Of a stretch of 55,876 nt of DNA, positions 2,493 through 45,744 are shown piece after piece. This DNA is from a bacterium. GTDB lineage: Bacteria > SAR324 > NAC60-12. The notes beneath the pieces are model-generated. The model made no database searches. It saw nothing but the letters and a program-made list of their open reading frames with translations, and was not told the DNA's origin. How positions within the stretch are numbered: the stretch's first letter is position 1; every line of letters starts with the position of its first letter. The translations under genes were made by a program, and so were the position numbers. The stretch lies in assembly GCA_965233585.1 (NCBI GenBank), contig CBDDTI010000581.1:1-55876 (forward strand), read 5' to 3'.

Positions 2493-2537
2493 GATTACTT
2501 CATAATATGTTTGGTTAAGATATTATGAATTAATATT

Positions 2538-3002
2538 TTATGCTTTCCACTTTCCTATTCCATCCCACCAGTTTTCAATTACTCTCATTTGTGTTAAGCA
2601 CGGTTTGTTTGTATCGTTTAGTTCATCCATCGCTATTGATAAAAGAATTATATTAATAACCATAGCGTAATAACCACCTCTTTTATTGAATTCTTTTCCA
2701 CATTGTATGATTATATCTTTATTAGTTAGGTTTTCATACATTCGTTTGATGATGTCAGGTTCTTTTTGTTTCCATATCTTAAACCGTTCTACATTACTTT
2801 CCTTAAATCTATCAAGGACAGATTTCCAAAAATCAAAGTCTTCACGAGATGGTAAGGGATGACACCTTACAAAGTCTCTAATCTCTTCATCTTCTTTTTC
2901 TATTGCTTTTCTTTCCCAGTCATCGTCCTCGCTTTCACTACCAAAGTCAGCATATAAACCAATATTACCTATATCTATAACCTCAATTTTTGCTCTACTC
3001 AT
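2538..3002 (-). CDS. PLV hypothetical protein (154 aa)
   Basis: ATG-initiated AT-rich ORF with an upstream TACTTAAAG motif; no recognisable domain. Confidence 0.7.
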   Translation of the reverse strand: MSRAKIEVIDIGNIGLYADFGSESEDDDWERKAIEKEDEEIRDFVRCHPLPSREDFDFWKSVLDRFKESNVERFKIWKQKEPDIIKRMYENLTNKDIIIQCGKEFNKRGGYYAMVINIILLSIAMDELNDTNKPCLTQMRVIENWWDGIGKWKA

Positions 3003-3253
3003 TTTCTCTTATTATATATAGTTATTTTTTCTTTAAGTATTTACCACTTTTTGTAGATACTCTTTTATTTCTTCTACATTAAAATATTTTTCATAACCAT
3101 TGAAAAGTTCTTCAGTGTATTCACGCAAAAATATTTCCAAAAGGGTGTGAAATAGTTTTAGGATTTTTTTTGAGCAGGTTTGGGAATTTTTTTTGGATTC
3201 CTTGGCTGGTACCATTTGCCTAGTGTTTGCAACGGTTTGGAACTTGAATTTGT

Positions 3254-3502
3254 CATTTTGCATGGTATTTGCCACATTTGGGCATGTTCACCTTCCATTT
3301 TGCATGGGATTTACTACATGTGGGCATGTTCACCTTCCATTTTGTATGGTATTTGCCACATTTTGGCATGTTCACCTTCCATTTTGCATGGGATTTCCTA
3401 CATGTGGGCATGTTCACCTTCCATTTTGTATGGTATTTGCCACATTTTGGCATGTTCACCTTCCATTTTGCATGGGATGTTCTACATGTGAGCATGTTCA
3501 CC
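3254..3502. repeat. 42-bp minisatellite (~6 units, alternating variants)
   Basis: Unit GGCATGTTCACCTTCCATTTTG(C/T)ATGG...; yields 14-aa periodic spurious ORFs. Confidence 0.9.
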
Positions 3503-3569
3503 CAAATATTTACAGATGCGGAAGCTTGGGATTAGATAAAAAGCGGGTGGGGGGGATTGAGGGAGGGCG

Positions 3570-4236
3570 CTAGCTATCTATCCAGCTAGCTAGCTATCTA
3601 GCTATCTAGCTAGCTAGCTATCTAGCAAGCTAGCTATCTATCTAGCAAGCTATCTATCTATCTAGCTATCTATCTACCTATCTAGCTAGCTATCTTGCTA
3701 GCTATCTATCTACCTATCTATCTAGCTAACTATCTATCTAGCTATCTAGGTATCTAGCTTTCTATCTATCTAGCTATCTATCTAGCCATCCAGCTGTCTA
3801 TCGAGCTATCTAGCTATCGAGCTATCTAGCTAACTATCTATCTATCTAGCTATCTAGCTTTCTATCTATCTAGCTATCTATCTATCTAGCCATCCAGCTG
3901 TCTATCCAGCTATTTAGCTATCGAGCTATCTATCTAGCTATCTATCGATCTAGCTAACTATCTACCTATCTATTTAGCTATCTATCTATCTATCTAGCTA
4001 TCTATCTAGCTACCTCTTTATCTATCTAGCTAGCTATCTATCTATCTAGCTATCTATCTAGCCATCTATCTATCTAGCTATCTATCTAGCCATCTATCTA
4101 TCGAGGTATCTAGCTATCTATCTCTCTATCTATCTATCTAGCTGGCTATCTATCTATCTAGCTATCTATCTACCAAGCTATCTATCAGCTATCTATCAGC
4201 TATCTATCTATCTATCTATTTATCTATCTATCTATC
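3570..4236. repeat. (CTAT)n/(CTAG)n compound microsatellite
   Basis: Directly visible. Confidence 0.95.
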
Positions 4237-4487
4237 ACATGTAATCCTGTCAGCTTTCCAGAGAAGGTTAGTTCGCAAAAACCAACTAATGTAACTTGGG
4301 TTTAAGTTTAAATAAAAAAAAGTGGGAGGGGGGATTGGGGGGAGGGCGCAGCGCCTCCCCCCAAAGCAGAATGCAAGCACCTCTTCTCACATGTTACGTT
4401 GCTAGTTTTCAAGAGAAGGTTGGTCATGTGATACTCAGGGATGTAAATACTGTGCAAAATGCATCTTACATGAAAATCAAGTATTTA

Positions 4488-4858
4488 AAGCAGGCAAAGC
4501 AAAAAAAAGCAGAGAAGCAAAAAAGCAGAGAAGCAAAGAAACAGGAAACGCACAAAAGCAAAACAGCAGAAAGGCAAAGAAGCAGGAAAAGCAGAAAAGC
4601 AGAGAAGCAGGAAAAGCAGGAAAAGCAGAGAAGCAAAGAAACAGGAAAAACAGAAAAGCAAAAAAGCAGAAAAGCAGAGAAGCAGAGAAGCAGGAGAAGC
4701 AGAAAAGCAAAAAAGCAGAAAAGCAGAGAAGCAGAGAAGCAGGAGAAGCAGAAAAGCAAAAAAGCAGAGAAGCAGGAAAAGCAGGAGAAGCAGGAAAAGC
4801 AGGAAAAGCAGGAAAGCAGAGAAGCAGGAAAAGCAGGAAAAGCAGAGAAGCAGGAATC
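4488..4858. repeat. AGCAG(A/G)AAA-type 8-9 bp degenerate tandem repeat
   Basis: Directly visible. Confidence 0.9.
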
Positions 4859-5517
4859 CAAAAATAATTCCTAAACCTGATCAAAAAAAAAATCCTAAAA
4901 TAATTAGCCCTCCTTTCCAAAATGTCTTTTACCTTAAACTCCCTATTTCTGAATGTATAAGTCCAATCGTTTTGAGGAAACCACCACTCCCATTTGTTCT
5001 TACAATACTTCATATATGTAAGGTCGTGAAAGTTTTTAAGAAAGTGATAGGTAGTTTTCCACTCCCTTTTCACAAAAGACTTAATCGCCATTAAGAACAG
5101 TTTGTCGTGTTTGAATTCTTGCTTGAGTTTGAATGTATCCATTAAAACATAAATTTCTCTTTTCATTTGCCGCGTGTTTGTTCGGTTCGTGTTGGATAAA
5201 TAAATAGGTGATTTCTCCATCCTTGTTTTAAAGAAATAGATTATCTTTTCAACTCTTGTCAGTTTTTTATCATTAAAATAGTCAAAATGATAATTGAAAT
5301 CTATGTATCTACGCTCCCTATCGTTTAAGCCTTTACATTTTTCACAGTGAAGGTTGTAATGACATATCTCATCACAAATTCCAGCGGGAAAAATATTGTT
5401 CAATAAAACCTTTAGGTTAGTCATTTCTTTCTAACAACATCCACAGTTTTTATAAGTAAATAGCATCCTCTTACTATATATAGATATTTTTTCTTTAAGT
5501 AGTTTTTGGGGGCTCGT

Positions 5518-5946
5518 TCAGTTTTCGGGTTCGGGTTGGTTTTTATTTTCCCTTTCCTCCTCTTCCAGTTCCTTTATAACCATATCTATTTCACTCATTC
5601 CTTCGTTGGGGTCTTGTCCATTGGCAAGGTTTCTTAACCTCTCAAAATCCTTCACTTTGTGTCTTTCGTTGGGTGGGAGGGTTTGGAGATGTTCCTTCAA
5701 CTCTGTCAGGTCAAAGTATGTGTCGTGTTCTTCATCCTCATTTTCCAAAAACATTTCCATTCGTTGCTTTTCCATTTCCAGAAGTTTGTTTTCCATCTGT
5801 TGGAATTTCATTTGTTTCTTGCCACACTTTCCACAAACATTCACGAAGGTTTTTAACAAATAATTCCAACTAGGTTTTTTGTAATCACCATTGTTTAAGG
5901 TGATACACTCACTCATAATACGACATCCACAGTCAAATTTAGTCAT
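5518..5946 (-). CDS. PLV hypothetical protein (142 aa, CxC and CxxC)
   Basis: ATG ORF with upstream TACTTAAAG motif; possible Zn ligands. Confidence 0.65.
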   Translation of the reverse strand: MTKFDCGCRIMSECITLNNGDYKKPSWNYLLKTFVNVCGKCGKKQMKFQQMENKLLEMEKQRMEMFLENEDEEHDTYFDLTELKEHLQTLPPNERHKVKDFERLRNLANGQDPNEGMSEIDMVIKELEEEERENKNQPEPEN

Positions 5947-5990
5947 CTTATTTACTCTTACTATATATAGGTGTTTTTTCTTTAAGTATA
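5947..5990 (-). promoter_or_regulatory. Candidate promoter class 1, TACTTAAAGAAAAAA-n-CTATATATAGTAAGAG (representative copy)
   Basis: Near-identical blocks at 3003-3039, 5467-5501 and 5955-5988; core CTTAAAG or near match also at about 21565, 21725 and 22728, each 27-37 nt upstream of an ATG. Confidence 0.65.
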
Positions 5991-6010
5991 TTTTTTATTG
6001 CTGATAATTT

Positions 6011-6031
6011 TAAAATCTAATATTATAATAT
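6011..6031 (+). promoter_or_regulatory. Candidate promoter class 2, AT-flanked TCTA (representative copy)
   Basis: TCTA 7-20 nt before the ATG of integrase, ORF 6997, MCP, lipase, mCP, ATPase, fibre and ORF 17553. Confidence 0.55.
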
Positions 6032-6973
6032 ATGGCAAGGAGACTATCAAGAGATGACATCATAAGCAATGTCTATTACAATCTTGAAACGGGCTTCGGT
6101 TCAATCAATGAGACCCTCAAGAAAGCCAAGGAACAAGACCAGACCATCAACAGGGTGGATGTGGAAAACTTTATGAGGAAACAGCCCAACAAACAGATTA
6201 GAAAATACAGGGGTTCAAACTCCTACACCGCACCATTCGCAAGGTTTGAGTATCAAATTGACATAATGGATATGAAACCCCTAACTAAAGAACCAGAGAC
6301 AAAAATTCCCATCAAGAACGACGAACCGAGATATGGGTTGGTGGTCATTGACATCTTCAGCAAGTTGGCAAACGTCGTCCCTATGAAAGAAAAATCCGGA
6401 CCAATCACATTATCGGCGATGAAAGATAGTTTCAACAAAATGGGTTTTCCGATGTCCGTTTATAGCGATAATGACCGTGCCTTCCAAGCGGGTGTAAAAG
6501 ATTTTTTTGAGAAAGAAGGCATCACTCACGTCGTCACCCTAACACACGCTAATGTTGTGGAACGTTTCATAAGGACAATGAAAAATATGATACACGACAG
6601 GGTCAGGTTTAATCGGGGCAGTTGGACTGTGATGTTGTCCAAAGCGTTAGATAAATACAACGACACCGTCCATTCATCCACCAAAATGAAACCCAAGGAT
6701 GCCCACGACGACAAAAACCATATGGACGTCAGGGTAAATTTGACAAGGAGGGAAAAGAACACTCGCAAATATCCAGAGGTCAAAGTGAATGATATGGTCA
6801 AGGTCTTTGAGAAGAAAAAAGACAACTACACCGAGAGGAAGGAGTATAACTCAAAGTGGAGCAATCAATCCTACAAAATCGTCAAGATAGAATACGATGA
6901 TGTCGGAAACAGAACCTTCAAACTGGAAGGATTGAACAAACCGTATTTGAGGCACGAGATTTTGAAAGTATAA
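6032..6973 (+). CDS. Retroviral-like (rve, DDE) integrase of Polinton type
   Basis: YQIDIMDM, LVVIDIFSK, VYSDND, VVERFIRTMK, YNDTVHSSTKMKP motifs; intact ORF. Confidence 0.95.
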   Translation: MARRLSRDDIISNVYYNLETGFGSINETLKKAKEQDQTINRVDVENFMRKQPNKQIRKYRGSNSYTAPFARFEYQIDIMDMKPLTKEPETKIPIKNDEPRYGLVVIDIFSKLANVVPMKEKSGPITLSAMKDSFNKMGFPMSVYSDNDRAFQAGVKDFFEKEGITHVVTLTHANVVERFIRTMKNMIHDRVRFNRGSWTVMLSKALDKYNDTVHSSTKMKPKDAHDDKNHMDVRVNLTRREKNTRKYPEVKVNDMVKVFEKKKDNYTERKEYNSKWSNQSYKIVKIEYDDVGNRTFKLEGLNKPYLRHEILKV

Positions 6974-6996
6974 AAAATTATCTATAATATTAATAT

Positions 6997-7341
6997 ATGA
7001 CAGAGGTAGTCGTAAAAGAGATTGATAATGAAGAACCCAAGGAAGAAACAATACCAGAGCCAACACAGGAAGAAGCACCGAAAGAAGAGGAGAAACCAGA
7101 AGAAATAATTGAACCATCCGTTGAAGAGAAACCGCAACCAGCCCCAAAGCCCAAAAGGGTAAGACCGTCAAGGGCGAAACCACCTTTTGACCCAGAAGCA
7201 TTCAAAAGCGACCTTGTAAAACAAATAAAGGAAGAACTACAAAGTGCGATGTCCGCCAGAGACACCTACAACAAAGCCAAAGAGGAAAAGAACAAAGCGA
7301 CGAGAGAGAACTTGAAATCTTTAGCATCAAAAAGTTTGTAA
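6997..7341 (+). CDS. PLV hypothetical Glu/Pro-rich protein
   Basis: ATG ORF in a tightly packed plus-strand array with TCTA upstream. Confidence 0.65.
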   Translation: MTEVVVKEIDNEEPKEETIPEPTQEEAPKEEEKPEEIIEPSVEEKPQPAPKPKRVRPSRAKPPFDPEAFKSDLVKQIKEELQSAMSARDTYNKAKEEKNKATRENLKSLASKSL

Positions 7342-7357
7342 AGTATTATATATAAAA

Positions 7358-7807
7358 ATGAACATCAAGGAACAGAAAATAGAACTCAACAAAACAGACA
7401 TCTACGAAAACGTCCGCAAGGACATCAACAGAAGACAAACCGTCCATTCAAACAAAAGTGCCAACTACCGGAGCGGAACGCCCGAAATGCCAGACAGAAG
7501 AAAAAAAGTGTATAGTAGTTATGACCACTACTACCACAACGACAGCAACACGGCAAGGATGCCAACTCACAACCATCATCTTTACCTAAAGCGCCTTCTT
7601 GAATATCACAACACCGAGCACGATTACAAAGTCTTACAAGTAAAGCAGAGGATGAAGGAAGAGAATGAGATGCTACAGAACGAAATGACAAGGTTGAGGG
7701 AGGTGAGGAAAAATCACAGATTGGAAGATTACGGGGCGAACGTCCAGAATATGAAACAGAGAATTGATGAGTATAAACAGTGGTTGAGAGGCGATACACA
7801 AGATTAA
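7358..7807 (+). CDS. PLV hypothetical coiled-coil protein
   Basis: ATG ORF, tight packing. Confidence 0.65.
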   Translation: MNIKEQKIELNKTDIYENVRKDINRRQTVHSNKSANYRSGTPEMPDRRKKVYSSYDHYYHNDSNTARMPTHNHHLYLKRLLEYHNTEHDYKVLQVKQRMKEENEMLQNEMTRLREVRKNHRLEDYGANVQNMKQRIDEYKQWLRGDTQD

Positions 7808-7837
7808 TATAAAAATCTCAACTATTAATATATAGCA

Positions 7838-9133
7838 ATGACAGCAGAAGTAATCAACGCAAAACAGGGATTGACACGAATACCCACTTACGCAGAACTC
7901 ATCAAGGAAATAGACAGGGAAAAGTTCAAAACCAATGACATCAGAAAAATCTTTGATAGGAACGCTTGGTATTTTCACGAAAGTCCGCAGGGTCAAGCAC
8001 TGAACACAAACAACATCCACCCAGCAGACTTACAGCAAATGAACTTCAAACAGATGGCAGAGGAAGCGACCGCAAGGAAGGAAGAAGAAACACCCAACCT
8101 TGACTTTGAAGGTATGACAGACTTGAGGGACGACGCCATCAGCGACTTCGAAATGTCCTTTGACAGAGAGGCAGAGTTGAGGGAAGAGAACGAAAGGAGA
8201 GTAGCAGAACAAGCAAACTTAAGTCATTCACAAGACCACTATATGGCAAACAAAGGGGCATACGACGCCGTTGGAGCAACGGCATCGGCAGGGATACAAG
8301 AAGACGAAGAACCGCCTTCAAGCAGTAGAAGCATCTTAAAGAAATTCCTTAAATCATCCAAACCAGTCATCAAAGCAGTCGCCACAGCAGGAGGAACAGC
8401 AAAGGGAGGGTCAATAGGAGGACTAATAGCATCAAAACTGACAGACGCCATCATACCCGACGAAGACGAGGAAGAGAAACCGTCCAAGATAAAACCAACA
8501 CAAAAACTAATCAACAAACAAGTCAAAAAGGTAAATCACCAAAAGAAGTTAAAGGAGGAAAAATCAAAGATGAACGTGGATGTAGTGCCCGATGTCAACG
8601 AACCAACGGATACAACAGCAATACCAACAGCAGAAAAAAGGAAGCCCTTAAGCGTGAGACAGTCCAAAGCAAAGAGGCAGAAACCAAAACCGCCAACGCA
8701 GGAGAAGAGAGAATTTCATGAAGACCCATCCACAACCACCAAACCACCCAAAGCAAGAAGAGTAAGAGGAAAGCAACCCCAACCACAAGCATTAGGAGCA
8801 ACAATCAACATCCCCAAAGACAACAAGACACCCAATGTAGATGAAGCAGAGACAGCACAGGAAGAAACAGGGGCGTCATCTTCATCAAAAGCACCAGTCA
8901 GGAAACCAACAATGAACAAAGCAATATCGCCAAGCAAGGTAGGAATACAAGTGATAAGAGAGAAGTTTGAAGAGATGAACAACAGCAAAAGCATAGACAC
9001 AGGAGACTATCAAAGGTTTCAAGAGGTATATGGTAAATGGAAATCAAGCAAGGGAGAGGATAAGAAACAGCATCTAAAGGAAGCGAAGGAACTTTACAAG
9101 TCAATCATCTATCCAAAATTAAAATCAAAATAA
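7838..9133 (+). CDS. PLV hypothetical low-complexity protein (431 aa; possible core/virion protein)
   Basis: Long ORF, acidic N-half, basic C-half, glycine-rich hydrophobic segment AVATAGGTAKGGSIGGLIA; function is inference. Confidence 0.7.
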   Translation: MTAEVINAKQGLTRIPTYAELIKEIDREKFKTNDIRKIFDRNAWYFHESPQGQALNTNNIHPADLQQMNFKQMAEEATARKEEETPNLDFEGMTDLRDDAISDFEMSFDREAELREENERRVAEQANLSHSQDHYMANKGAYDAVGATASAGIQEDEEPPSSSRSILKKFLKSSKPVIKAVATAGGTAKGGSIGGLIASKLTDAIIPDEDEEEKPSKIKPTQKLINKQVKKVNHQKKLKEEKSKMNVDVVPDVNEPTDTTAIPTAEKRKPLSVRQSKAKRQKPKPPTQEKREFHEDPSTTTKPPKARRVRGKQPQPQALGATINIPKDNKTPNVDEAETAQEETGASSSSKAPVRKPTMNKAISPSKVGIQVIREKFEEMNNSKSIDTGDYQRFQEVYGKWKSSKGEDKKQHLKEAKELYKSIIYPKLKSK

Positions 9134-9180
9134 TTAATAAGATTATTCATTATAATTTTATTAATTATCCACTATCATTT

Positions 9181-10581
9181 TTAGTCATAGAAAATGACAG
9201 ATTGGGCTTTTATCTCCAAGATACATTCGTGTTCAATAACGATATACATTTTGTCAGGCATCAGTCCAGTATCAGTCCCGTTGTCTGTTGTATATAGGTC
9301 TGTTCCATACAATGGCTTAACACGGACAACCATATTTGAATTGTTCTTCAAATTCAGTCCAGTGTAATTGGCACTGTTGAGTTTCTTGAGGTTGAACCCC
9401 GCTAAAAAGGAATTCGTCCTATACATATGAGGTTTGATTGAAACGTGATTGTTTCGTGTTTCTTGAAGATGCTTGTAGTTGTCAGCAACCCCCATCGTTG
9501 GCATTTCGGGTATGACAGTATTACCAATACTTAACTGAAAGGATAAATCAATATTTTCATAGTATCTTTGAGCAATTGATGTTCCGCTTTCCCACGAAAG
9601 GGGATGATAAAGAAGGTTATGAGGTTTCAACACTTCTTGGAAACCGCCCTTATAACCAAAATTTGAATAGAAAGATATGAATATGTTGTCTGCTTTACTG
9701 ACATTTCTAACTATTGTCGTGAAGATGTCGGCGCTTCTACTTGTTGTTTGGGTTTGGACGGAAACACTGTTGAAGGTTATAGGTAAAGATTGCTTTTCCA
9801 AAATTTCAGCATACTCCGCAAATAAACCATCATCAAGTCGGTGAATATCACAGGTGATGATGGGTTGCTCTATGTTCCATAAGAACGAAGTATTCGTTGT
9901 AGTAAAATCACCACTTAAATTAATGAGGGGTTCATTAGCATCACTGACCAAAGTTAGTTCAATGACAATCGGACAGTATGATAAAGGAATGAAGTTTGAT
10001 ACATTGAAGAAGGGACAAGAAGGTCGGTAATAAACGGTCTTTTTGTTTTTAAACCCTCCGAAATTGTCAGGTTTCGCTTGGTCAATGACATTCTGGACTG
10101 TGTTTGAACCTGGGTTCGTTGCCAACTGCGTATATGTCAAAAATCTATTTCCTTCATTATAGAAGGTCTCACCAAAACCTAAATTGTCAGTATAGTTTCT
10201 TGAACCGTCATCTTGTAAAATATCCATCATTGCTTCATAACGGTTTAAGTCAGGAATTTCAGCAATAACATTTGAACCCGCCATCACTCGCATTCTTTGA
10301 AAAAATGAGGATGGTTTATAGGCAGGTCTCAACTCTTTTGTTCCGTCATTGTCGGCATTGATGAGGGTAAAACCTATCAAAAGACTTCGCAGATTTATCC
10401 ATTCATTTGCTCCACCAGTTAGATTAAAACGGATGACATTGTTTGAGTTGGATGAGTAAGTAGAGACCGAAGAAGGGTAGAATGTTTTGATACGTTTGTC
10501 TCTAATGTAGGACGCTCCACCTTTTAGTCTATACCGAAGGACATTTCCATTGAGAACATCTGTAATTTCTAATGCTTCCAT
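9181..10581 (-). CDS. Major capsid protein (double jelly-roll, PLV type)
   Basis: 466 aa, beta-rich. IRFNL..WINLRSL, FFQRMRV....IAEI, FIPLSYCPIVIELTL and C-terminal YTGLNLK patterns resemble PLV MCPs; lies near mCP and ATPase. Confidence 0.8.
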   Translation of the reverse strand: MEALEITDVLNGNVLRYRLKGGASYIRDKRIKTFYPSSVSTYSSNSNNVIRFNLTGGANEWINLRSLLIGFTLINADNDGTKELRPAYKPSSFFQRMRVMAGSNVIAEIPDLNRYEAMMDILQDDGSRNYTDNLGFGETFYNEGNRFLTYTQLATNPGSNTVQNVIDQAKPDNFGGFKNKKTVYYRPSCPFFNVSNFIPLSYCPIVIELTLVSDANEPLINLSGDFTTTNTSFLWNIEQPIITCDIHRLDDGLFAEYAEILEKQSLPITFNSVSVQTQTTSRSADIFTTIVRNVSKADNIFISFYSNFGYKGGFQEVLKPHNLLYHPLSWESGTSIAQRYYENIDLSFQLSIGNTVIPEMPTMGVADNYKHLQETRNNHVSIKPHMYRTNSFLAGFNLKKLNSANYTGLNLKNNSNMVVRVKPLYGTDLYTTDNGTDTGLMPDKMYIVIEHECILEIKAQSVIFYD

Positions 10582-10631
10582 ACTTGTATATATTCTATAT
10601 AGAAAATGTTTGATGATTAGGTTATATTAAA

Positions 10632-10862
10632 TTAAGTTATGTCGAAGATATATTGTTTAAATGTATTTTTGGTTTTCTTCCCTTTGTTTTGGGGTTTGTT
10701 TTCTATAGGTTGATTTTCGTTGTTCTTTATATCTTTTCCGCTCTCTATGACCTTCTTGATTTCATTGTATGTTAGATGTTTTTTCTTTTTGGTATTCTCG
10801 TTCTTCAACTTCTTCATTTCCTGTCTGTTGTTCTTCAAATATTCCCTTACGATGTCTTCCAT
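10632..10862 (-). CDS. PLV small basic hypothetical protein
   Basis: ATG ORF between lipase and MCP. Confidence 0.55.
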   Translation of the reverse strand: MEDIVREYLKNNRQEMKKLKNENTKKKKHLTYNEIKKVIESGKDIKNNENQPIENKPQNKGKKTKNTFKQYIFDIT

Positions 10863-10887
10863 ATAATATGACTTATATAAAGTAAAA

Positions 10888-11578
10888 TCACATTATCTTG
10901 TTGATTGGTTCTGCCACATTCTTTTCTGACTTTCCCATATCTCCAAAATGGACGGCGTGAAAGCCGTGATTGTATAAAGGATTATAACTGTTCTTATTGA
11001 CTGTTATATCCACGCCTCTGTCAAACATACTGACTGGGTCGCCTACTGCCCTGAACCTCGTGTTCTTACTGTCAGTGTTGTCATTAAAACTTACGGTTGG
11101 TGTTCCATAGGTTCTGGTGGTAAATCTTTTGTTATAGTCTTGGTTCAGTTTCATCGTTGTTGCTGAACCCAAGGAATGACTGACAATTGTATCAACATTA
11201 TCAATGTTGTTTCTGATGAAGTCGTTTGCGGTCTTATACCGCTTTGACCTATGAACCATATGAAAAGGAATGAGTGTGTCGTCGCGGAAAATCTTTCGTC
11301 CCCGCTATGTAAAGCGTTTTATTCTCTGGGTGGTGGTATAGTCCTAAATTTGTTCTGTTATTGTATGCCCTCTTTAGTCCCGTCTCGTCGTTGATGTTGC
11401 TGAACTCCTCCAAGTATTTGTTTCCCCGTTGTATCTCCTTACTGAATTTCTCCAACAATTCCTTTTGTTTGTTGTTGTGTTTTTTGTTGTATTCTTTACC
11501 GTCAATCTCTTCAAAGGGGTTTATTCTTTGTAGTCGTCCCTGTGTTTTCATATCATCCATCAACCTTTTTTGAAGCAT
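10888..11578 (-). pseudogene. Lipase / alpha-beta hydrolase, frameshifted
   Basis: LYIAGTKD in ORF 11249-11656; nucleophile elbow IVSHSLGS and GDPVS in ORF 10888-11259; split near 11260-11290. Confidence 0.78.
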
Positions 11579-11630
11579 ATATAATAATGTATAGAAAAAT
11601 ATAATTTCTAAAGTTATTATATCATAATAA

Positions 11631-12458
11631 ATGAGTAGATTTAAAAAGATATACATAGACAGCCACCACCGAACCCAGAACTCTAACAGTAGCAGTGATT
11701 TTGAAATCTATTTACCCGAAAGTCAAGAATGCGGGAACGACACCAAACTCTACATCCACGAAATCACCATACCGAATTCCATTTATCCAGTCTAAGCGGG
11801 GTTGAACAGCAACCTTTACTTAAGACTGACGGATTTTTCAAACACTACGGATGTTATAATTGAACTGTTGAGTGCTTCCTATGTAGGTGCTACATTGGCA
11901 TCAAACCTTCAAACAAAGATGAACGAAGCAACAAACGGGTTTCAAGCAAACAACGATTATTTCAGTGTATCTTACGACTATGACACCAACAAAATAACCA
12001 TCACTTTAAACTATGTGGATTTTTCGTTCAAGATAATGACCGACTATGAGATGGAGTATAACACCATCCAATGGACGGGAACATCTTATGACAGAAATAA
12101 CTTAAAATCCATCAATCAGGTTTTAGGAAACTACACCTCATCGTTGAACTATCCAGATTGGAAAAGCGGGTATTTGACATTATTAGCGTTGAGAAATTTA
12201 TACCTTACTTGTAGTGAATTGAGCGACGCTAAACAATTAGGTTCTACGGGTGCTTACAACATCGTTAAGAAAATCCCGATTAATGCCCCCTTCGGTTCAG
12301 TCATCTATGACAATGAAATCATCAGTGTTGATTACATCAATGTTTCAAATAGAGTGTTGAGAACACTACACTTCAAATTGGTCAATAGTTATGGTAATGT
12401 TGTTGATTTGAACAATGTGAATTGTTCATTCTCCCTGACCTTCATTGAGGACGATTGA
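11631..12458 (+). pseudogene. Minor capsid (penton) protein with premature stop
   Basis: ATG 11631 gives MSRFKKIYIDSHHRTQNSNSSSDFEIYLP, in frame with ORF 11802-12458 across TAA at 11793-11795; C-terminal LHFKLVNSYGNVVDLNNVNCSFSLTF resembles PLV mCPs. Confidence 0.8.
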
Positions 12459-13058
12459 TGTAAAAATTTCATTGATTAACTCACTGGGTATTCTATATAA
12501 TTCATCTTGACGATGTATTATGTAATCATTACCCCAGTCGCTCTTTTTGCCTGATGGCATCCGTTGGGCTGTTTCTTTATGTTTATTGTTGATGATGTTT
12601 CCACAATCTTTTTTACATAATGGTCTTGGTTTCCAACTGGTTAGGTTCGTCCATATCCTTGTCCTTTTTCTGTATGGAAAGCCGTATTTACAATAATCAA
12701 TGTCAAAGTAATCAAAGTCTTTCATAAAGTCCTGATGTTTCAACAATCCAGTCTGTGGGTTTTCTATGAACCATACTGATGGATTGAAGTATGTGATTAT
12801 TTCAATGGTCTCTTGAACGATGCTGTTGGCATAATCTATTTTTCTAACACCAGTGGTTTTGGCAATGCTATATTCAACACAAGGGGGAGAAGCCCCAATG
12901 ATTTGAAAATTGTTTCTGTTGAATTGTTTGTAATCCCAATTGAGTATGTCAGTGTTGATGTTGGCATCCTTCAAGTCCAACGAGACAACATCATAACCTA
13001 ACTCTTTGGCGACTTTGCCTACACTTCCCGTTCCAGAAAACAGTTCAAGTAATTTCAT
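12426..13058 (-). CDS. C5 cytosine DNA methyltransferase
   Basis: Motif I LELFSGTGS, motif IV SPPC, motif VI IENP, then DYCKYG..RKRT; intact. Confidence 0.92.
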   Translation of the reverse strand: MKLLELFSGTGSVGKVAKELGYDVVSLDLKDANINTDILNWDYKQFNRNNFQIIGASPPCVEYSIAKTTGVRKIDYANSIVQETIEIITYFNPSVWFIENPQTGLLKHQDFMKDFDYFDIDYCKYGFPYRKRTRIWTNLTSWKPRPLCKKDCGNIINNKHKETAQRMPSGKKSDWGNDYIIHRQDELYRIPSELINEIFTSIVLNEGQGE

Positions 13059-13088
13059 ATTATAAAACTATATATTTAAAATATGAAA

Positions 13089-13451
13089 CTATGACAGCAA
13101 CACATAGGAGTTGTTTGACGGGTCTTTATTGATTTGGTAGTATGCTAAAGTTTCTTCTTTGGGTTGTGTGATTTTACCCGATGTAATCCACTCAAAGTAT
13201 TGTTTCCTTTTATCTTCCCACGAACCGACGGGTCTGCCTATCTGCTTCTTTTCAAAGGCTTTGTTTATTCTTTCTTTGTCTTTGTCGTTGGTATTTTCTT
13301 TGTTCTCTTCCTTCTTGTTGTTCAGGTTATATTCTATGTTCTTAACAGTGTTCATTATGGTTATGAGGTTCTTATTCATTTTGCTCACCTTGTTCTTCAG
13401 TTCTTCCAGTTCTGATTGCTTTACGGGGTCATCGCTCTCAACATCCACCAT
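13089..13451 (-). CDS. PLV hypothetical protein (coiled coil, GRP motif)
   Basis: ATG ORF; no domain recognised. Confidence 0.6.
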   Translation of the reverse strand: MVDVESDDPVKQSELEELKNKVSKMNKNLITIMNTVKNIEYNLNNKKEENKENTNDKDKERINKAFEKKQIGRPVGSWEDKRKQYFEWITSGKITQPKEETLAYYQINKDPSNNSYVLLS

Positions 13452-13569
13452 ACTATTATATATTTATATATATATAATTATTTATTTAGATATATATTTA
13501 TTTAGATATTTATTTATCAATTTGCTTTCACGCAAAATCTACTCTTTTCACCATTTTGTGAGAAACTTT

Positions 13570-14001
13570 TTAATCCATATCATTCATTGACTTTCTACCG
13601 CTACTTCTTGGAGTGCTTATTACATCGCTTATCATCTTTTTCGTGCTCTCTACTTTCTTATCTTCGGGTGTGATTTGTCTGTTCCAACTGAACGAGATAC
13701 TGTGGTCTTCGCTGTCCAACTTTATATCCCCGTTGTCATCTCTACTTACATTCATCGTTTTGTCATTTTTGGTAATTTTGAAGGAGCAAGGATTACAAGA
13801 ACACTTTATGCCCTTCGGGTTGATAAGAATTTCGTTTCTCAATTGTAATTTACCCCTACAAATGGGACAATCAAAGGTAATGAATTTACTTGACAGTTTT
13901 TGTTCCTCGTTCAGATTGACAACAGCGGGTTCTTCATCTGAAAGTTCAAAATCCTCGGGGATTGGTTGTTTTTTGATTGTGTTAGTTTTCTTTTTCGGCA
14001 T
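13570..14001 (-). CDS. PLV hypothetical protein with possible Zn ribbon
   Basis: CPIC ... CSCNPC. Confidence 0.6.
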   Translation of the reverse strand: MPKKKTNTIKKQPIPEDFELSDEEPAVVNLNEEQKLSSKFITFDCPICRGKLQLRNEILINPKGIKCSCNPCSFKITKNDKTMNVSRDDNGDIKLDSEDHSISFSWNRQITPEDKKVESTKKMISDVISTPRSSGRKSMNDMD

Positions 14002-14481
14002 CTATTTTATATTTGAGAAAATTTTAAACAATTTTAATTAGTTCCAATGTGTGCTTACAACATCTTTTCACCCTGTTGTCGGTGATGACTGGATACTTCG
14101 TGTCATCAACAATCCTATTTTCAATCTCACCTATTGTATCAATGTAGGTTTCATACTCGTTCATCCTGATTATATGTAATTAGAAAATATCATCAACATA
14201 CATTCTAATTATACTATACAGGACTTTTCTTTTGCGACACGAAGATTTCTACTGGGGTGGGTAGAACGAAAATGTCGGGGTGTAATCAAAAGCAAAGCAC
14301 AAACGAATTCATCTTCTATTGCTTCGTTTTGTCAGTCAAAGGGACGCAGAGTTCAAAACTAATTAACGTCTTATGCGGACTGAAAAGCAACTGTCCCATT
14401 TTCACCCGACGCCCTTTCAAGGTAAAAAAGGTTTCCTTTTGAATATTTTATATCAGAAATTTATTTCTAAATACTTTTAAT

Positions 14482-15230
14482 ATGATAAATATAAAGCCTT
14501 ACAAACATAAAGAATATATAATTGTAAGCAGTCATCCTACGGGTATATGGTTTGTCTTCCAGCAAGGATTTTACTGAACGCTCCGTCGGGAACGGGTAAA
14601 ACGGTTGCTTTGACAAACTTGGTGTTGGACATCTACAAGGGTTGCTTTGAGAAAATCTACATTTTTTCGCCAACCATCTTCATTGATGACAACTGGACGG
14701 TTGTGAAAAAATACATTGACAAAGAAATGGACATCAAACACACGGATGAAGACCCCATTTACTTTGACACCTTTGAGGAGAAGGACTTGAAGAACGTGAT
14801 AGACACGCAGGAAGGAATAATAAAGTATATGAAGGAGAAGGATTACAAACACCTATACAACATCTGTATCATCATAGACGACTGGGCTGACAACGAAAAG
14901 GTTGTCAGGAAGAACAAGGAGTTAATCAAACTCTTCACCAAAGGTAGGCATTGGTATATCTCAACTTTTATCACATCACAATCCTACACACAAATATCGC
15001 CAGTCGTTAGGAAGAATGCCACCCAACTTTTCATCTTCAGGCTTCGTAATCAAAAAGATTTAGATGCCATTTTGGAAGAATTGAGCGGGTTGTATGACAA
15101 GAAAACTTTAGACAAGATATACCGAGTTGCCACGAATGACAGGCACGGTTTTTTATACATAGATTTGATGGAAAGCGACAAGAAGAAAATGTTTTACAAA
15201 AACCTCAATCAAAGAATTCAAGTGGAATGA
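14482..15230 (+). CDS. A32/FtsK-HerA type DNA packaging ATPase (5' end probably frameshifted)
   Basis: Walker A APSGTGKT, Walker B IIIDD, KGRH, SQ, VRKN in ORF 14547-15230. Upstream ATG at 14482 (MINIKPYKHKEY) is out of frame across an AT run. Confidence 0.93.
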
Positions 15231-15262
15231 TGCTACAAAATTATTTTATCATCTAATAATAT

Positions 15263-17529
15263 ATGGCAAATTATTATAATATAAATAGGAGCGTGGAGGC
15301 ATACGAGTTTAGAACAATAGACCCAAATAACGGACAGTTAAGGAACATCCTTGACATCGCAGGAAGTGGTGGTGGAGGAGGTGGTAGTGTTGATTTAACC
15401 AATTACTATACAAAAGCGGAAACAAACAATCTTTTCACCCCTTATTATGATAGTGGTGAAGTTGATGGTTTATTCACAAGTTATTACACAAAAGTTGAGA
15501 CCGATGGTTTATTCACCCCTTACTATACAAAAGTTGAAACCGATGGTTTATTCACCCCTTACTATACAAGAGTTGAAACCGACGGTTTATTTACCCCTTA
15601 CTATACACAGACTGAAACCGATGGTTTATTAAACAATAAATTGAATGTCAGCAATCCCGAAATAACAGGCGTTTTGAAGAGCAATGACTTTGATAGTAAA
15701 AACAGTCTGTCTAACATAGTGTTTAAACATAACAATGCTATTTATTTGGAATATGATTATGATTACGATACTAACGGTGGTTTAGTTTTAGGAAAACCAT
15801 TGGCATTAGCATCAAGTTTAGATATACCATTGAATAGTAAATTACTTTTTCAACATACCGACAGTTATATAAATGAAACTTTAAACGCTGGAAACTTTTT
15901 GAATTTTGTAATGAAAGAACAGACAGGTCAAATTGACTTTTATGTAGGCGACCCCGCTACTGCTTCTAATTTAGTTATGACATTAGCAAATGATTTAATC
16001 ACATTTCATAAAACAACATCACCCGCTATTGGAGGTGGTGGTGTTGATGACACTAATTTAGTAAAATATACAGGTGAAACATTACAAACAATAGAAGGCG
16101 ATTTAGTTTTATGTGGCGGTGTTCAATTTGGAAGTTTTGACTTAACGGTTAATGGTTCTGCTTATTATAATTCAACCATAGAATTTCCATTAGGAGGTTC
16201 AATTGTTTTAGGAACTGGTAAAGGTTATATCCGTTCTATCAATATAGGAAGTGGTAATCCTGATTTGATTATTGTATTTTTGCTTCTGGTGGAATACATC
16301 GGTTTTATGTTGGTGGTCGTCCGTTTCCTCAACACTTAAAATTTCAATTGTCATTAACACAGGCATATTTTAATGTTAATGTCGTGTGCCATACTGAATT
16401 ACAAACCGATGTCATCAATACAAAAAACGCTACTGATGTTGATTTAGTCTTCAAAAGAGGCGATGTTGCATATATGAAGTTTGAAGGAACGCTACAAGCA
16501 GTGGAACTAACAAAAGGTGCTAAAGCAAACACTTATGATAGTATAGGTAATGCTGATGTTAAATTTAGAAGGAACACAATAGACTTTATGTATTTTAGAA
16601 ACGGTAATGTAGAAGTAAATACGGGTATATCATTACTTGCTGAAAGTGCTAAATTTGATGTAATTGATAGTGCCACACCTACCGATGTAGTCTTTAAAAG
16701 AGGTGGTGTAAATTTCTTTACATTAGATGGTGCTAACAGTATTATTAATGTTTCAACAGGTAGGGCGTTGTCATCTCAATATATTTATGGAGATTATTTT
16801 TACAATAGAAATTATGGTGCTGATATGGTTTTTCAAGGTAGTAATACAACAGATGACGGTTTAGTAGAATATATGAGATACAGAAAAGCAACTGAAGATG
16901 TTAATTTTTCAAAAGACGTATATGTCAATCAAGACAAAAAGGCATATTTTCATAAAGAAACAAGCAAGAATAGTTATATAGTTAATGAAAATACCGCAGG
17001 TGTTAATCATTTCAAGTTAATCAATGAAGACCCTAACGGGGACATAAGATTTTATGCTAATAGCAGTATAAGACTTTTTATTACACCATCAAAAGTTTCT
17101 GTTCCAGCACCTTATACATTAGAGGGAGACCTTGTAGATACATCACAAAAAGATAAGAAATATGATATTGAAGAAGCAAATTTCAATTTTACAAAAATAG
17201 TAAATAGCATTAAACCTCATACTTTCAAAATGAAAGAAGAAAAAGAAATGGGAATAACTAAAAGTCATATAGGTTTTATAGCAGAGGAGGTAGAAGAAAA
17301 TATACCAGAAAAAGTTGAAAATATACTCGTTGAAGTTGATGGTATTAAGAAATTAAGTTATATTAAAATGGGAAGTATCACTTGGGGAGCAGTCAGAGAA
17401 ATAATCAAAGAAAATGAAGACTTGAAAAACAAAGTTGAGCATTTAGAAACCCGCTTATTTGAAGTTGAAAACTTCATCAAAGATTTTGTCAAGCCTAAAG
17501 CAAAGGCGAAATCCAAATCAAAGAATTAA
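15263..17529 (+). pseudogene. Fibre-like protein with C-terminal S74 intramolecular chaperone, one frameshift near 16262
   Basis: N-terminal YYTKxETDGL repeats, beta-rich body, C-terminal SQKDKKYDI...IKPHTFK...HIGFIAEEVEENIPE plus coiled coil. The duplicate copy (41210 onward) reads through the frameshift. Confidence 0.82.
15403..15630 (+). repeat. 39-bp coding tandem repeat (~6 units, YYTKVETDGLFTP)
   Basis: Visible in DNA and protein. Confidence 0.9.
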
Positions 17530-17552
17530 AAATCTAAAATCATATATACACA

Positions 17553-17759
17553 ATGGGCAATTCAAACAGCAGTGTTGAAAACGACTACCTTGAACAAATC
17601 AAAAAGATAGACGAAGACGAAAAGACCCGAACAGATGTTTTACTCATCAAGAGCGTAAAAGAGTTGGTGGGAAGAGTGGAGAAACTGGAAAAGGAGAAAC
17701 AAAACAAACTGATATATCAACTACCGAAACTACAACTCTGTAATTGGAGTTTGATATGA
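17553..17759 (+). CDS. Small protein with possible N-myristoylation site
   Basis: Starts MGNSNSS (MGxxxS); conserved in the duplicate at 42672-42878. Confidence 0.6.
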   Translation: MGNSNSSVENDYLEQIKKIDEDEKTRTDVLLIKSVKELVGRVEKLEKEKQNKLIYQLPKLQLCNWSLI

Positions 17760-17791
17760 ACAATTGATAATATTATTGTTAAATAATATTA

Positions 17792-20700
17792 TTAATTGGA
17801 TAATGAGTAGTGCCCATAGGGCAGACTGTCAGTATCGTTGAACCAATACCTTTTGTTGTCATAAGATGTTAAACCGACCTTGCTTTGGTTTATACTGTAG
17901 ATTTGGTGGTTCTTACTTCTGATGGCATTGAAATTTACATTCTTTGGTATGTGTTCGTGGAGTGTTGCCTCATAGTCTTTCATATCTAAATCCCTTTTGA
18001 CTTTCAGTTTTGGAACACCCTTTGCTTTCTTTTCTGCTTTCTGTTCGTTGAAGACTTTTAGACAATACATTTTAGGACGTAAAGCAATGAAGTTTGTGAT
18101 GATTTTTCCATCCATCTCGTCCTTGAACTTGCCAAGGACTTTTTTATTAGTGGCATCATAGCAAGGGTGGTTCTTATCATAACCGCTGAAGTCCATATAA
18201 TCCTTTATTCCTTTCCAATCTTCATAGATGTCTTCGGTGAAAGTTTGTATAACATAACTGTCGGTGTCAGTATATATCAGTCTTACATCATCCTTATACT
18301 TTGCTTTTAAGACATCATAGTAGAAAGAATACATATGAACCTTTGAAAGGTCTAAAATTAACATTCCCAAATAGATAGGTTTATCCAACTTCAATACAGT
18401 TTTTGTTTTTCCCACTCCTGCCAGTTCTTCATTTATAATATGACATCCTTTGTAGTTAGGATTGTTGATACATTTTTGTATCCTCTCCTGCGTTGATACT
18501 AATTCAAAGTCAATGTGGTTTCTGACATTCTCCATCGTTTTGCCATAAACGGCGTTGTTCATCAATTTGAACATATCCTTCTCAAAGTCGCTCTTCGCTA
18601 CTTTTCTTTTTTCAGTGTTAAAATCTATCCAAGGTTTCAACCAACATCTCTGTTTGAACTTCACCCCACGATGAACTTGTTTGATTTTCATACCCTTTTG
18701 AAGGTAAAACTGTAATGCCTTGATATGGACTACATAGTTGGGTTTATCCATTTGGTTTAGGATAAGTTTTGGTTGTTTCTCATCCCGTGCCTCCTTGCCA
18801 TTATAGTAATTTCTATGTAGTTCCCTTTGGTGCTTTGAAAGTAGTTTCTCTTCAACCTTCATATTTTCAGGTGCTAATGGGTAATCCGCTTGTTCGTCCT
18901 GTATCTCCTTTGGATACTCTAAATCAACTTCCAGTATGTAGGCATTGTCATCGTTTTCATTCCAGTCCATTATCATCTTTTCTGTCAGTATCTTCTTTAT
19001 CCACTTCAGTTTTCCTATGGGCAGTTTCATTGACATTGCCAGTCCATAGAGGTTATTAGCATCTAAATAATTGATATAATTAGATGGTCTGTTTTTATCA
19101 GTCGTCCATCATATACTTATTATTTGCTTTTGCTTCCTTATGACTTACTTGACACATACCACCTCTCAAACCCTTCTCAATCATCTCATACATCTCTTGG
19201 TCAGTTAAAGGGTCTATTTCAACACCAGTTTTTAGAAGCATAGCGTCCCAAGCAAAGTTAGGAAGGGTGAAATAATGTGCTGGGTCTAAACCGTAGTATT
19301 CCAAACAAAGGTCTCTAAAATTTTCAAAGACATCAGTGAGTAAAAGAACATCGGTTCTCAAATACAAGTCGTGGTATTGACCAAGATTTCTTATACCGAA
19401 GTGTTCCCATATCCTTTGTGCCCTTTCATACTCATCATCTTCAATATGACTTTCGGTAAGATTGCTGTAAAAACTTTCTTTTGGTGGTAGTTGTTTTTCC
19501 CTAAATTTGTCAAATGAAGTGAAGTAATCATAAGGATAAACACCTTTATCAGTTAGTAAATCTAAATCCTCATCATTACTCACATAAGGGTTTCTTTTGC
19601 TAAATTTGAAGTTGTTTTGCCAGTTTTGTTTCTTCTCTCCGTCTTCATACTTACTCAACTTCACCAACTTATGAAAGAAAAACTGTCTTTGAAACAAAGA
19701 TTTTAAATGCGAATGTTATGAACTTCTCACTATTCTGTGCTATTACATCTATCTTACCCCTTTCTGATAGTTTATTTGCCCTCTCAATGATTAAATGACT
19801 GTCATAGTTCTTGAGGTTATGAAGGAAAACGGGGATTTTATAATATCTCATTGAAAACTGTAAATTACAATCATCGTGGGCACAACCCCTATACTTACCT
19901 GTAAAATGACAATGGTCTCTAACCTTTTTATCACCTTCTTTGAAGTCTTTACCACATATAAAGCATTTCTTTGCGGTTTTAAAGTCCCTCCAGTCATCTG
20001 CCCTCATAATGATTTCCTTGTTTTCCTTCATTTTTTCCATTATCTCATTTTTGACTTCAATAATCTTTTGGATAAAAACATCCATACAATCCTCCCCTCT
20101 GTGAAGGAAAGGCTTTGATGAACCATCAATTGAATTGACAACATTTATCATAAAACCGTAGGGTCTGTGATGTTGGTATTTATCAGTCTTAACTTCTTTA
20201 GTTGAAACTGTCCCCGTCCTTGTGGTTAAACATTCAAAGTCAGCATAGATGACAAAAGGTGCTTTCAACTTTTTATAGTGGTTCTTGAAAACCATAATGT
20301 CGTCTTCATTAGGCATTTCTATCTGTTGCCCTTCAACTGCCATACATCCCTTTTCATTGTGTTCATCTAAAAGTTCCTGTGATTGAAAACCCGTGTCGGC
20401 AGTGAAAACAATGATAAACTTTTGCTTTGTGTTTGTTGGTTTGGCATCCTATCAACTTGTCATAATCTTTGATGAATACATAATGGTAATCATCCCCATC
20501 CTCCAGTTTCAGAAGACTGATTTGATGAGTTGCTCTTTGAACCTTGGTCTGTCTGTAAAGTAGGATGTATTGTTTCCATTCTTCGGGGTCAATAAAATAA
20601 ACATTGACTGCTACTTTCCCTCCATTGTTTTCTTCAAATGTATCTATATCAACATCTGATGACGGAAAATTGACATTATCCCACTTCAACTCATCATTGA

Positions 20701-21688: not shown

Positions 21689-21830
21689 TTTCTCCTTAAA
21701 ATATGAAGTAATATATAGTTATTTTTTTAAGCAATTGTGGGTTCTCGTTCACTTTTTGGGTCATTGGGTTCTGGGTTGAAGTCCAACGTGAGAACACCAG
21801 AATTGAATTTGGGAAAAATGGTTTAAAGAA

Positions 21831-45740: not shown

Positions 45741-45744
45741 ACTT

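Follow-up and report, generated by a model that had tools for sequence, protein, structure and literature searches.

A polinton-like virus family bears two upstream motifs divided by gene class, one of them the TCTA core of a giant-virus late promoter

Two motifs and two classes of genes

Contig C581 (CBDDTI010000581.1; GenBank assembly GCA_965233585.1), whose full stretch of 55,876 nt we call the window, belongs to a 12-Mb bin of 747 contigs classified as bacterial and carries an integrated polinton-like element of ~24 kb (2274..26727, from inverted repeat to inverted repeat). The genes of this element are preceded by two short motifs, an AT-flanked TCTA and a second signal, CTTAAAGA-N(6-12)-TATAWA, and we show here that both are genuine, occur in a preferred orientation and position, follow gene class and are kept across diverged lineages. 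The TCTA class, with the motif 11-24 nt before the ATG, comprises the genes for the capsid, the candidate penton, the packaging ATPase, a lipase-like protein, the fibre, small proteins and the integrase. The second class comprises the genes for the protein-primed polymerase, a zinc finger and a GIY-YIG protein together with the left-arm genes, and in the more distant cousins of the element also a large helicase protein. Judged from its sequence context, TCTA very probably works as a promoter element for both the morphogenesis genes and the integrase. What is new is that the TCTA signal occurs in a family of polinton-like viruses distinct from the mavirus group, together with a previously unreported second motif that splits the replication from the assembly set; no description of such a split in a polinton-like family was found in the main texts searched.

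TCTA is positioned and oriented upstream of genes

The first-pass annotation of this DNA had listed nine AT-flanked sites, and all of them are present with A/T-only flanks: TCTA at 6016, 6981, 11607, 14466, 15252 and 17533 on the plus strand, and TAGA at 10600, 11592 and 14181 for genes on the minus strand. It had placed them 7-20 nt before start codons, and the distances from the end of the motif to the ATG are indeed 12, 12, 20, 12, 7 and 16 nt for the plus-strand sites and 18, 13 and 17 nt for those of the minus strand. The TCTC variants it reported before the open reading frames (ORFs) starting at 7838 and 14001 are seen at 7816 and 14015, and there is none of either before the methyltransferase (13058) or the ORF at 10862, as it had said. 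Four of the start codons used here differ from the longest-ORF starts. That at 11631 begins a frame of 276 codons that holds a single in-frame stop, the homologues having 286-292 aa; that at 14482 precedes a frame change before 14547, and the homologue in the sibling element C657 (248 aa) starts right after its TCTA; that at 11578 is a Met inside ORF 11249-11656, at which the C657 lipase-like gene begins; and that at 14163 opens a 43-codon ORF with homologous ORFs of 63-64 aa in C657 and in the cousin element C155. With these starts, exact TCTA precedes 9 of the 22 gene starts in the window (11 when TCTC is included), 5 or 6 carry the second motif and 4 carry neither. The motif had been described as preceding virion-module genes, which holds for the capsid, ATPase, fibre and other genes; the integrase carries it too, so TCTA is not purely a virion signal.

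Counting positions from the ATG, TCTA falls at -35..-6 of these 9 starts against 3.08 expected from its element-wide frequency (p = 0.002). When C581 and C155 are taken together, 17 of the 86 occurrences of WW-TCTA-WW on both strands lie in sense upstream windows, which make up 1.4-1.5% of strand positions. Among cores with at least five occurrences, TCTA ties with TATA for the top positional enrichment (~13-fold), and the antisense control, TAGA, reaches 4/86; compared with the remaining cores that contain G or C, TCTA has an odds ratio of 10.2 (p = 3e-11). The sense motif outnumbers the antisense one by 9 to 3 in C581, by 10 to 2 in C155 and by 70 to 22 across 138 automated five-prime ends, and TCTA precedes only 3 of 52 internal ORF fragments in the same elements.

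A second motif marks the replication genes

The second motif stands upstream of the left-arm genes 2538-3002, 4477-5424 and 5518-5946, of the polymerase (21688) and of the zinc-finger gene, and the GIY-YIG gene also belongs to this class. The pattern occurs 20 times in the 12-Mb bin, 16 of these in the five element-bearing contigs, and an ATG follows within the printed stretch in every one of the element-contig occurrences shown. In k-mer counts over 44 upstream windows of C581 and C155, ATATA is found in 34 windows against 7.25 expected, TCTAA in 15 against 2.68 and CTTAAAGA in 5 against 0.19. These counts and the positions of the motifs thus define a layout in which an ATATA box lies near the gene and either of the two distal motifs stands beyond it; in most genes it forms a compact promoter of no more than ~40 nt from the ATG (75 nt for one gene).

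The assignment of motifs to genes is shared by diverged relatives

The relatives of the window element range from a 99.4% copy (C322) and an 85-90% sibling with an inverted block (C657), through cousins with capsids 26-31% identical (C155 and C424), to small elements with an integrase and a polymerase (C606, C493, C315 and C73). We compared 18 sources, using only ORFs that could be aligned to the reference at their N-terminus and a window of -36..-9 for TCTA. In this set, TCTA precedes 73 of 116 five-prime ends of virion and other genes versus none of 20 ends of replication and accessory genes, whereas the second motif precedes 4 of the 116 and 17 of the 20, with the reservation that the family grouping was drawn after the data had been seen and the sources are related, so that Fisher values overstate independence. 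By family, TCTA is found at 14/17 capsid, 8/8 candidate penton, 6/7 ATPase and 6/7 integrase ends, and its positions concentrate within -24..-14, peaking at -22/-23 and at -16. Because of the post hoc grouping and the relatedness of the sources, we designed a held-out test in which the classes were fixed from the window alone and applied to 12 sources with capsids no more than ~31% identical: TCTA is kept in 28 of 35 orthologues of TCTA genes, and the second motif in both orthologues of second-class genes (2/2).

The small elements, a third lineage, follow the same scheme. TCTA sits at -14 of the four integrase ORFs whose upstream gap is clean, three homologues of the N-terminal polymerase ORF have CTTAAAGA, and 2/4 zinc-finger genes have the variant CTTAAACA or TTTAAACA. 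On the upstream sequences compared, then, the gene-to-motif assignment is kept in relatives whose capsids are only ~25-31% identical.

Other features of the relatives vary. The block from capsid to ATPase (window 9181-15231) is inverted in C657 (17600-23722), and every gene within it retains its own motif. In C155 and C424 (L087) a protein of 1349 aa that bears a superfamily-1 helicase domain takes the place of polymerase B, and GIY-YIG genes number at least four in C155 and at least three in C424, mostly behind a variant of the second motif. Locus L078 joins a C155-type virion module to a C581-type replication module.

A scan of metagenomes with the capsid alignment yielded 80 loci, 71 of them with a readable upstream region of the capsid gene, and widened the view to the capsid clade at large. 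TCTA lies at -35..-9 in 21 of the 71. Of these 21, seven are close relatives, nine are 25-29% identical (L060-L062, L069, L076-L078, L084 and L085) and have TCTA at -22..-24, and only five come from the remaining ~50 loci. Many other capsid loci keep a TATATA box near the ATG while their distal words differ, with a AAAATTGATAT-like word ~50 nt upstream in L024, L032, L038, L050 and L051 and ACTTTTTTCT in L054-L056, L072 and L079; the distal words of these aquatic relatives lie ~30-50 nt upstream. For PgVV, a virophage of Phaeocystis globosa virus, AAAATTGATAT is reported as the giant-virus early motif (bioRxiv 10.1101/2022.07.28.501842). The proximal box is therefore common and the distal motif varies by sub-lineage. 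The distal word looks like the variable part of the promoter, and it is possibly helper-specific.

A giant-virus helper as the reader of the motifs

An AT-flanked TCTA is the late promoter of Cafeteria roenbergensis virus (CroV) and is shared by mavirus; this premise of the first-pass annotation agrees with PMC8547959 and holds also for EMALE04. Among giant viruses, TCTA is described for CroV and ChlorV (PMC8547959, PMC13196603). The late motif of ChlorV is shared with CroV "in sequence and position", ChlorV also has an early AAAAATTGA, and the early motif is called highly conserved in mimiviridids (PMC13196603). EMALE04, which carries TCTA, is the only EMALE type that responds to CroV (PMC10945749), and a giant-virus partner is commonly proposed from shared promoter motifs as standard practice (PMC10945749, PMC11502894, bioRxiv 10.64898/2026.07.28.741278). 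From motif identity, promoter geometry and analogy with these systems, we lean towards the view that TCTA may be read by the late machinery of a co-infecting giant virus. The mini-promoters would be used by the transcription machinery of that virus and not by host RNA polymerase II (Pol II); TCTA would be its late signal, as with CroV and mavirus, the second motif would be an earlier, replication-stage signal, and intact copies would express virion genes only during giant-virus infection. With the motif placed 11-24 nt ahead of the ATG, the gaps of 16-50 nt would be too tight for the canonical TATA-to-start distance of Pol II.

The 3' ends of the genes can be compared as well. Hairpin terminators are a hallmark of Mimiviridae (PMC6163669), and the convergent gaps of the element resemble them. 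Perfect AT-rich hairpins occupy the gap between gene 7838 and the capsid (9130..9168; fold z = -5.99) and positions 17763-17796 (z = -5.42), with 0/300 shuffles as low in either case, and 4/5 convergent gaps fold at z <= -4.6 (range -4.6 to -6.0) versus 2/6 promoter gaps near z = -3.4. Hairpins are also found in convergent gaps of the relatives, at 26477-26510 in C657 and 21094-21118 in C155.

We also scanned IMG/VR for the second motif, which gave mostly single, chance-like matches, with two exceptions. The first, L278, is a 10.7-kb polinton-like contig (rve, A32, GIY-YIG and DUF5906 genes) in which CTTAAAG stands before ORFs in 7 of 8 occurrences and TCTA before the ATPase. The second, L266, is a contig of a giant-virus metagenome-assembled genome (MAG) with RecQ, UDG, YqaJ, RFC and ankyrin genes and tRNAs. 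Over 42,021 bases of this contig, 6 of the 10 occurrences of CTTAAAG fall within -110..-15 of an ORF (p = 2e-6), a further two stand before tRNA genes, and AAAATTGA, the Mimiviridae early motif, is enriched (5/15). Within 9914-10432, two exact copies of the second motif lie 12 nt and ~90 nt upstream of tRNA-Asn and tRNA-Pro. We consider the sharing of the second motif with L266 a lead, not proof.

That the element genes are read by a giant-virus RNA polymerase, as the first-pass annotation proposed, is borne out in part: the motif is real, promoter-like and virion-linked, and has the same core as in CroV, mavirus, EMALE04 and ChlorV, but a series of observations weighs against this reading. 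TCTA stands before 9/22 window genes and not before all of them. The replication genes use a motif other than AAAATTGA, and AAATTGA is found in only 2/298 upstream windows of the element family, so that a simple CroV-like helper does not explain the second class. A search of the bin for a nucleocytoplasmic large DNA virus (NCLDV) capsid gene found none. A polymerase and an integrase are encoded by the element itself, and for some polinton-like viruses replication needs no giant virus (PMC10945749). In six metatranscriptomic runs, which come from three studies, 45-50% of the sampled words of 6000-15999 are present, which could reflect transcription without known infection, or DNA carry-over. 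The contig L266 was chosen because it matched the second-motif pattern twice; TCTA is not enriched before its ORFs (6/338, p = 0.34), and a single match to the pattern in each of six further giant-virus MAG loci came with no enrichment of it before ORFs and was treated as chance. To these we add the shortness of a four-base core, the grouping of families after the data had been seen, as noted above, and the shuffle result for bare TCTA in C155 given below, which is not significant.

The main rival is that the element is an autonomous polinton-like virus and both motifs are its own code, read by the host nuclear machinery or by an element factor such as the conserved C2H2 zinc finger, with the likeness to CroV a coincidence or a matter of distant ancestry. 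It agrees with an element that encodes its own polymerase, integrase and zinc-finger gene and with the independent replication known for polinton-like viruses (PMC10945749), but neither the 11-24 nt between motif and ATG, in gaps of 16-50 nt, would suit the TATA geometry of Pol II, nor are the convergent gaps filled by poly(A) signals, hairpins standing there instead. A four-base core holds little information and the second motif differs from the Mimiviridae early motif; on the other side, CTTAAAG is likewise seen before genes of a contig from a giant-virus MAG. The proximal TATATA box common to many aquatic capsid relatives without TCTA suggests a core promoter of the lineage's own, and the RNA-labelled runs hold about half of the words, yet other branches of the capsid clade carry AAAATTGA, the giant-virus early motif of the Phaeocystis globosa virus virophage (PgVV) (bioRxiv 10.1101/2022.07.28.501842). 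Taken together, we regard autonomy as possible, if somewhat unlikely.

Composition has to be considered too, the upstream windows having 13-17% GC. Against 2000 dinucleotide-preserving shuffles of each 30-nt window, a stricter null, the enrichment comes out weaker. In C581 the flanked motif gives WWTCTAWW 8 versus a mean of 2.83 (reached by 4/2000) and bare TCTA 9 versus 5.40 (73/2000). In C155 the flanked motif gives 9 versus 5.46 (85/2000) and the bare one, without significance, 10 versus 8.44 (583/2000). We give the shuffle less weight because windows with a single C keep TC and CT and thereby largely rebuild TCT, and the within-window shuffle is in our judgement over-conservative. That TCTA is a functionless by-product of AT-rich intergenic sequence is highly improbable given its positional enrichment equal to that of TATA, the scarcity of the antisense core, the absence of sense TCTA from three equally AT-rich convergent gaps, a position fixed at -22..-24 before capsid genes 25-31% identical and the conserved assignment by gene class. 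Least probable of all is that TCTA is a 3' end signal (terminator or polyadenylation) of the preceding gene, as the 16-32 nt gaps of tandem pairs, which also follow a stop codon, would allow: the head-to-head gaps 5947-6031, 11579-11630 and 14164-14481, where no gene ends, hold one TCTA per TCTA-bearing gene in the orientation of that gene, and the tail-to-tail gaps, where two genes end, hold none, which favours a promoter over a terminator role.

Gene content of the element

The integrase-like gene (6032..6973, plus strand, 313 aa; TCTA at 6016-6019) encodes a protein 38% identical to its C155 homologue, which matches Pfam rve at 1.1e-6 and 29.3 bits, under the 32.6 cut-off; the window protein itself has no Pfam match. 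Three genes with no assigned function follow on the same strand (6997..9133, starts at 6997, 7358 and 7838): the first has TCTA at 6981-6984, the second none, and the third TCTC at 7816-7819, with TCTA at the matching place in its C657 homologue.

The major capsid protein gene is intact (9181..10581, minus strand, 466 aa; minus-strand TCTA at 10600-10603). Its model (predicted local distance difference test, pLDDT, 72.7; pTM 0.78) is a double jelly-roll that Foldseek matches to Vp54 of PBCV-1 (3.7e-16) and to the Sputnik capsid (5.7e-14), with 138 matches in BFVD at E <= 0.001. By sequence, the protein had no relative in the phage record collection and, as a single query, none in IMG/VR, where the capsid alignment found one weak locus; the capsid profile had no match among PDB sequences, and the Pfam virophage capsid families matched none of the element proteins.

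Next to the capsid lies the gene that we tentatively name lipase-like (10888..11578, minus strand; minus-strand TCTA at 11592-11595), which has an HSLGS motif and no Pfam match; it is split into two frames in the window and intact, with 259 aa, in C322. The candidate penton, or minor capsid, gene (11631..12458, plus strand; TCTA at 11607-11610) has an in-frame stop at 11793-11795 and is named from its position and size, the model of the intact C155 homologue reaching a pLDDT of only 48.7. The C5 DNA methyltransferase gene (12426..13058, minus strand; Pfam DNA_methylase 25 bits, cut-off 22; phrog_757 1.3e-16) has no TCTA. At -16 of this gene there is TATA in the window and in L015 and TCTA in L019 and L078, the rest of the upstream stretch (13059-13088) being alignable; from this alignment, the methyltransferase seems to have lost TCTA in the window lineage, rather than never having had it.

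Three small minus-strand genes come next: 13089-13451, with TCTA at -39 and -55; 13570-14001, with TCTC at 14015-14018; and the 43-codon ORF 14033-14163, with minus-strand TCTA at 14181-14184 and homologues that have TCTA at 7/7 five-prime ends. The longest non-coding gap of the virion-module stretch lies beyond them (14164-14481, 318 nt, GC 0.34 with a GC-richer middle). In this gap TAGA at 14181 faces TCTA at 14204, and no RNA family matched it; C155 has an 83-aa ORF at the corresponding place.

The A32-type packaging ATPase gene (14482..15230, plus strand; Pfam Pox_A32 4.2e-11, 43.2 bits, cut-off 22.8; TCTA at 14466-14469) shifts frame between 14482 and 14547 in the window, and its homologue in C657 is unbroken at 248 aa. 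The fibre gene (15263..17529, plus strand; TCTA at 15252-15255), with a C-terminal S74 chaperone domain (Peptidase_S74 1.2e-9; phrog_1980, tail fibre), is split here and intact, with 755 aa, in C322. A 68-aa gene follows it (17553..17759, plus strand; TCTA at 17533-17536), whose homologues have TCTA at 4/5 five-prime ends.

In the second class, the gene for protein-primed DNA polymerase B (17792..21688, minus strand) is broken into at least six ORF fragments and stands behind the variant CTTAAAAA (21724-21731); DNA_pol_B_2 matches one of six fragments at 29.1 bits (cut-off 25.8), and in C657 the polymerase consists of 863 + 427 aa. An endonuclease VII (HNH-type) domain lies within the polymerase B frame (19669-20343; Pfam 27.4 bits) and also in the 863-aa C657 homologue; it may be an inserted homing-type nuclease. 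The GIY-YIG gene (21831-22343, plus strand) scores 22.4 bits in Pfam, just below the 22.6 cut-off, and has TTTAAAGA at 21822-21829. The C2H2 zinc-finger gene (22370-22699, minus strand; zf-C2H2 25.8 bits) has CTTAAAGA at 22727-22734, and the left-arm genes (2538..5986 with their upstream regions, minus strand) have CTTAAAGA followed by TATATA at 3030-3037 (gene 2538-3002), 5492-5499 (4477-5424) and 5979-5986 (5518-5946).

Genomic setting

The region is an integrated, partly decayed polinton-like virus in eukaryote-like DNA that was binned with a bacterial MAG. The GC profile shows an island of 33-41% at ~2000-23000 in surrounding DNA of 45-52%, made up of a low-GC viral core (~2300-22800) and followed by a GC-richer right arm (22800-26400) that has neither motif. 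Terminal inverted repeats pair 2317-2472 with 26553-26397 (78% over 159 nt, E = 3e-28), and both ends of the element are common to the window and C657. At least five genes of the window copy are broken: the polymerase in at least six fragments, the fibre and lipase-like genes each split, the ATPase with a frame change and the penton candidate with one in-frame stop.

The contig looks eukaryotic and is probably mis-binned, since its mixture of 35% and 50% GC averages close to the composition of the bin; it also carries a reverse-transcriptase ORF and long simple, microsatellite-like repeat arrays. Scans of the whole window for tRNAs and Rfam families gave no match. Searches for the identity of the host were uninformative: the ORFs flanking the element matched no informative Pfam family, and three pieces of the dinoflagellate spliced leader occurred 0, 0 and 1 times in the 12-Mb bin. 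In public assemblies, close capsid homologues lie on contigs of up to 1.85 Mb, and one cluster at 90% identity has 412 members. The interval 6000-15999 is represented by 45-57% of sampled words in 20 of 24 listed runs from 11 studies, labelled with six coded organism labels and "coral metagenome".

A second, truncated copy of the element (41210..52515; self-match 98.7-99.2%) comprises the right half (3' part of the fibre gene, polymerase and zinc finger) and the same right arm, and keeps CTTAAAGA motifs at 50744 and 51749. It begins within the fibre gene, and the GC-rich DNA upstream reads through as a 551-aa fusion ORF (40419-42074). Both the right arm and the DNA beyond it are repeated in the two copies; thus, the element and its surroundings were duplicated together. 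Between the full and truncated copies lies a retroelement-like block (26700-41200; ORFs 28311-30989, 31332-32579 and 32797-34608), with a reverse-transcriptase ORF (Pfam RVT_1, E = 1.6e-4, below cut-off) and a 603-aa ORF that resembles a tyrosine recombinase by sequence and has no Pfam match. Tandem or low-complexity arrays are found at 3250-3660, 4371-4874, 35267-35806 and 45187-48361; two of them lie inside the left arm of the element, and one overlaps ORF 4477-5424.

Implications

At present, virophages and polinton-like viruses are tied to giant-virus partners mainly by one kind of sequence clue, shared promoter motifs. The position-fixed TCTA in a many-copy, coral-associated family predicts that this setting harbours a so far unknown giant virus whose late promoters carry TCTA, and the pair of TCTA and CTTAAAGA-TATA is a concrete search key for it. 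The two-class layout also offers a testable model of an integrated element that stages replication and assembly on the early-to-late switch of its helper. With more doubt than confidence, we suggest a broader picture: a two-tier promoter code, both tiers of which may have been borrowed from giant viruses, with CTTAAAGA-TATA for replication and TCTA for the virion genes and integrase. Such a code would mimic an undiscovered giant virus of a coral-holobiont eukaryote, possibly a dinoflagellate symbiont, and the hundreds of copies would form an inducible anti-giant-virus reservoir, in keeping with the antiviral role raised in the first-pass annotation. In the Mimiviridae-like giant-virus MAG contig L266, the CTTAAAG core precedes recombination and repair genes and two tRNA genes.

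Comparison with known systems

The element resembles mavirus and EMALE04 in its AT-flanked TCTA shortly before ORFs, in its integration into eukaryotic DNA and in its set of putative integrase and protein-primed polymerase B, double jelly-roll capsid and A32-type ATPase. To our knowledge, all genes of mavirus carry the TCTA motif. The window element differs in having it on only about half of its genes and a second motif on the replication genes. It differs also in the sequence relatives of its capsid, which are polinton-like viruses of metagenomes and eukaryote contigs and not the virophage families, and in its gene content: no cysteine protease was found in the window element, which has lipase-like, fibre and GIY-YIG genes. 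A further likeness to EMALEs is the retroelement with a candidate tyrosine recombinase that adjoins the element, as Ngaro retroelements do with EMALEs (PMC8547959). For EMALE04, induction by a giant virus has been demonstrated (PMC10945749), whereas for the window element it is predicted.

PgVV/Gezel-14T has a similar gene repertoire, with a GIY-YIG nuclease, an alpha/beta-hydrolase, an A32 ATPase, minor and major capsid proteins and a tail-fibre-like protein (bioRxiv 10.1101/2022.07.28.501842). It shares with the window element the presence of a giant-virus promoter motif on only a subset of genes, and some distant capsid relatives carry AAAATTGA upstream. In PgVV the early motif AAAATTGA precedes five genes, and no late motif is reported for it there; the window family has TCTA and CTTAAAGA, without AAAATTGA. 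PgVV combines a tyrosine recombinase with TVpol, whereas the window element combines an rve-like integrase with polymerase B.

The Dino group of endogenous polinton-like viruses of dinoflagellates (PMC10120064), described as distantly related to PgVV, and the polintovirus and polinton-like relatives of stony corals (PMC11131425) resemble the window family as endogenous capsid elements present in many copies on long eukaryotic contigs, and the window sequence occurs in runs labelled coral metagenome; these groups were compared by description only, and the word "promoter" is absent from the main text of both papers. The polinton-like viruses of Tetraselmis differ in that their induction by the giant virus TetV-2 was shown experimentally, and the accessible sections of that preprint name no TCTA motif. 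They share with the window family a structural core that is conserved, while the modules for replication and integration joined to it can be exchanged (bioRxiv 10.1101/2025.10.09.676808).

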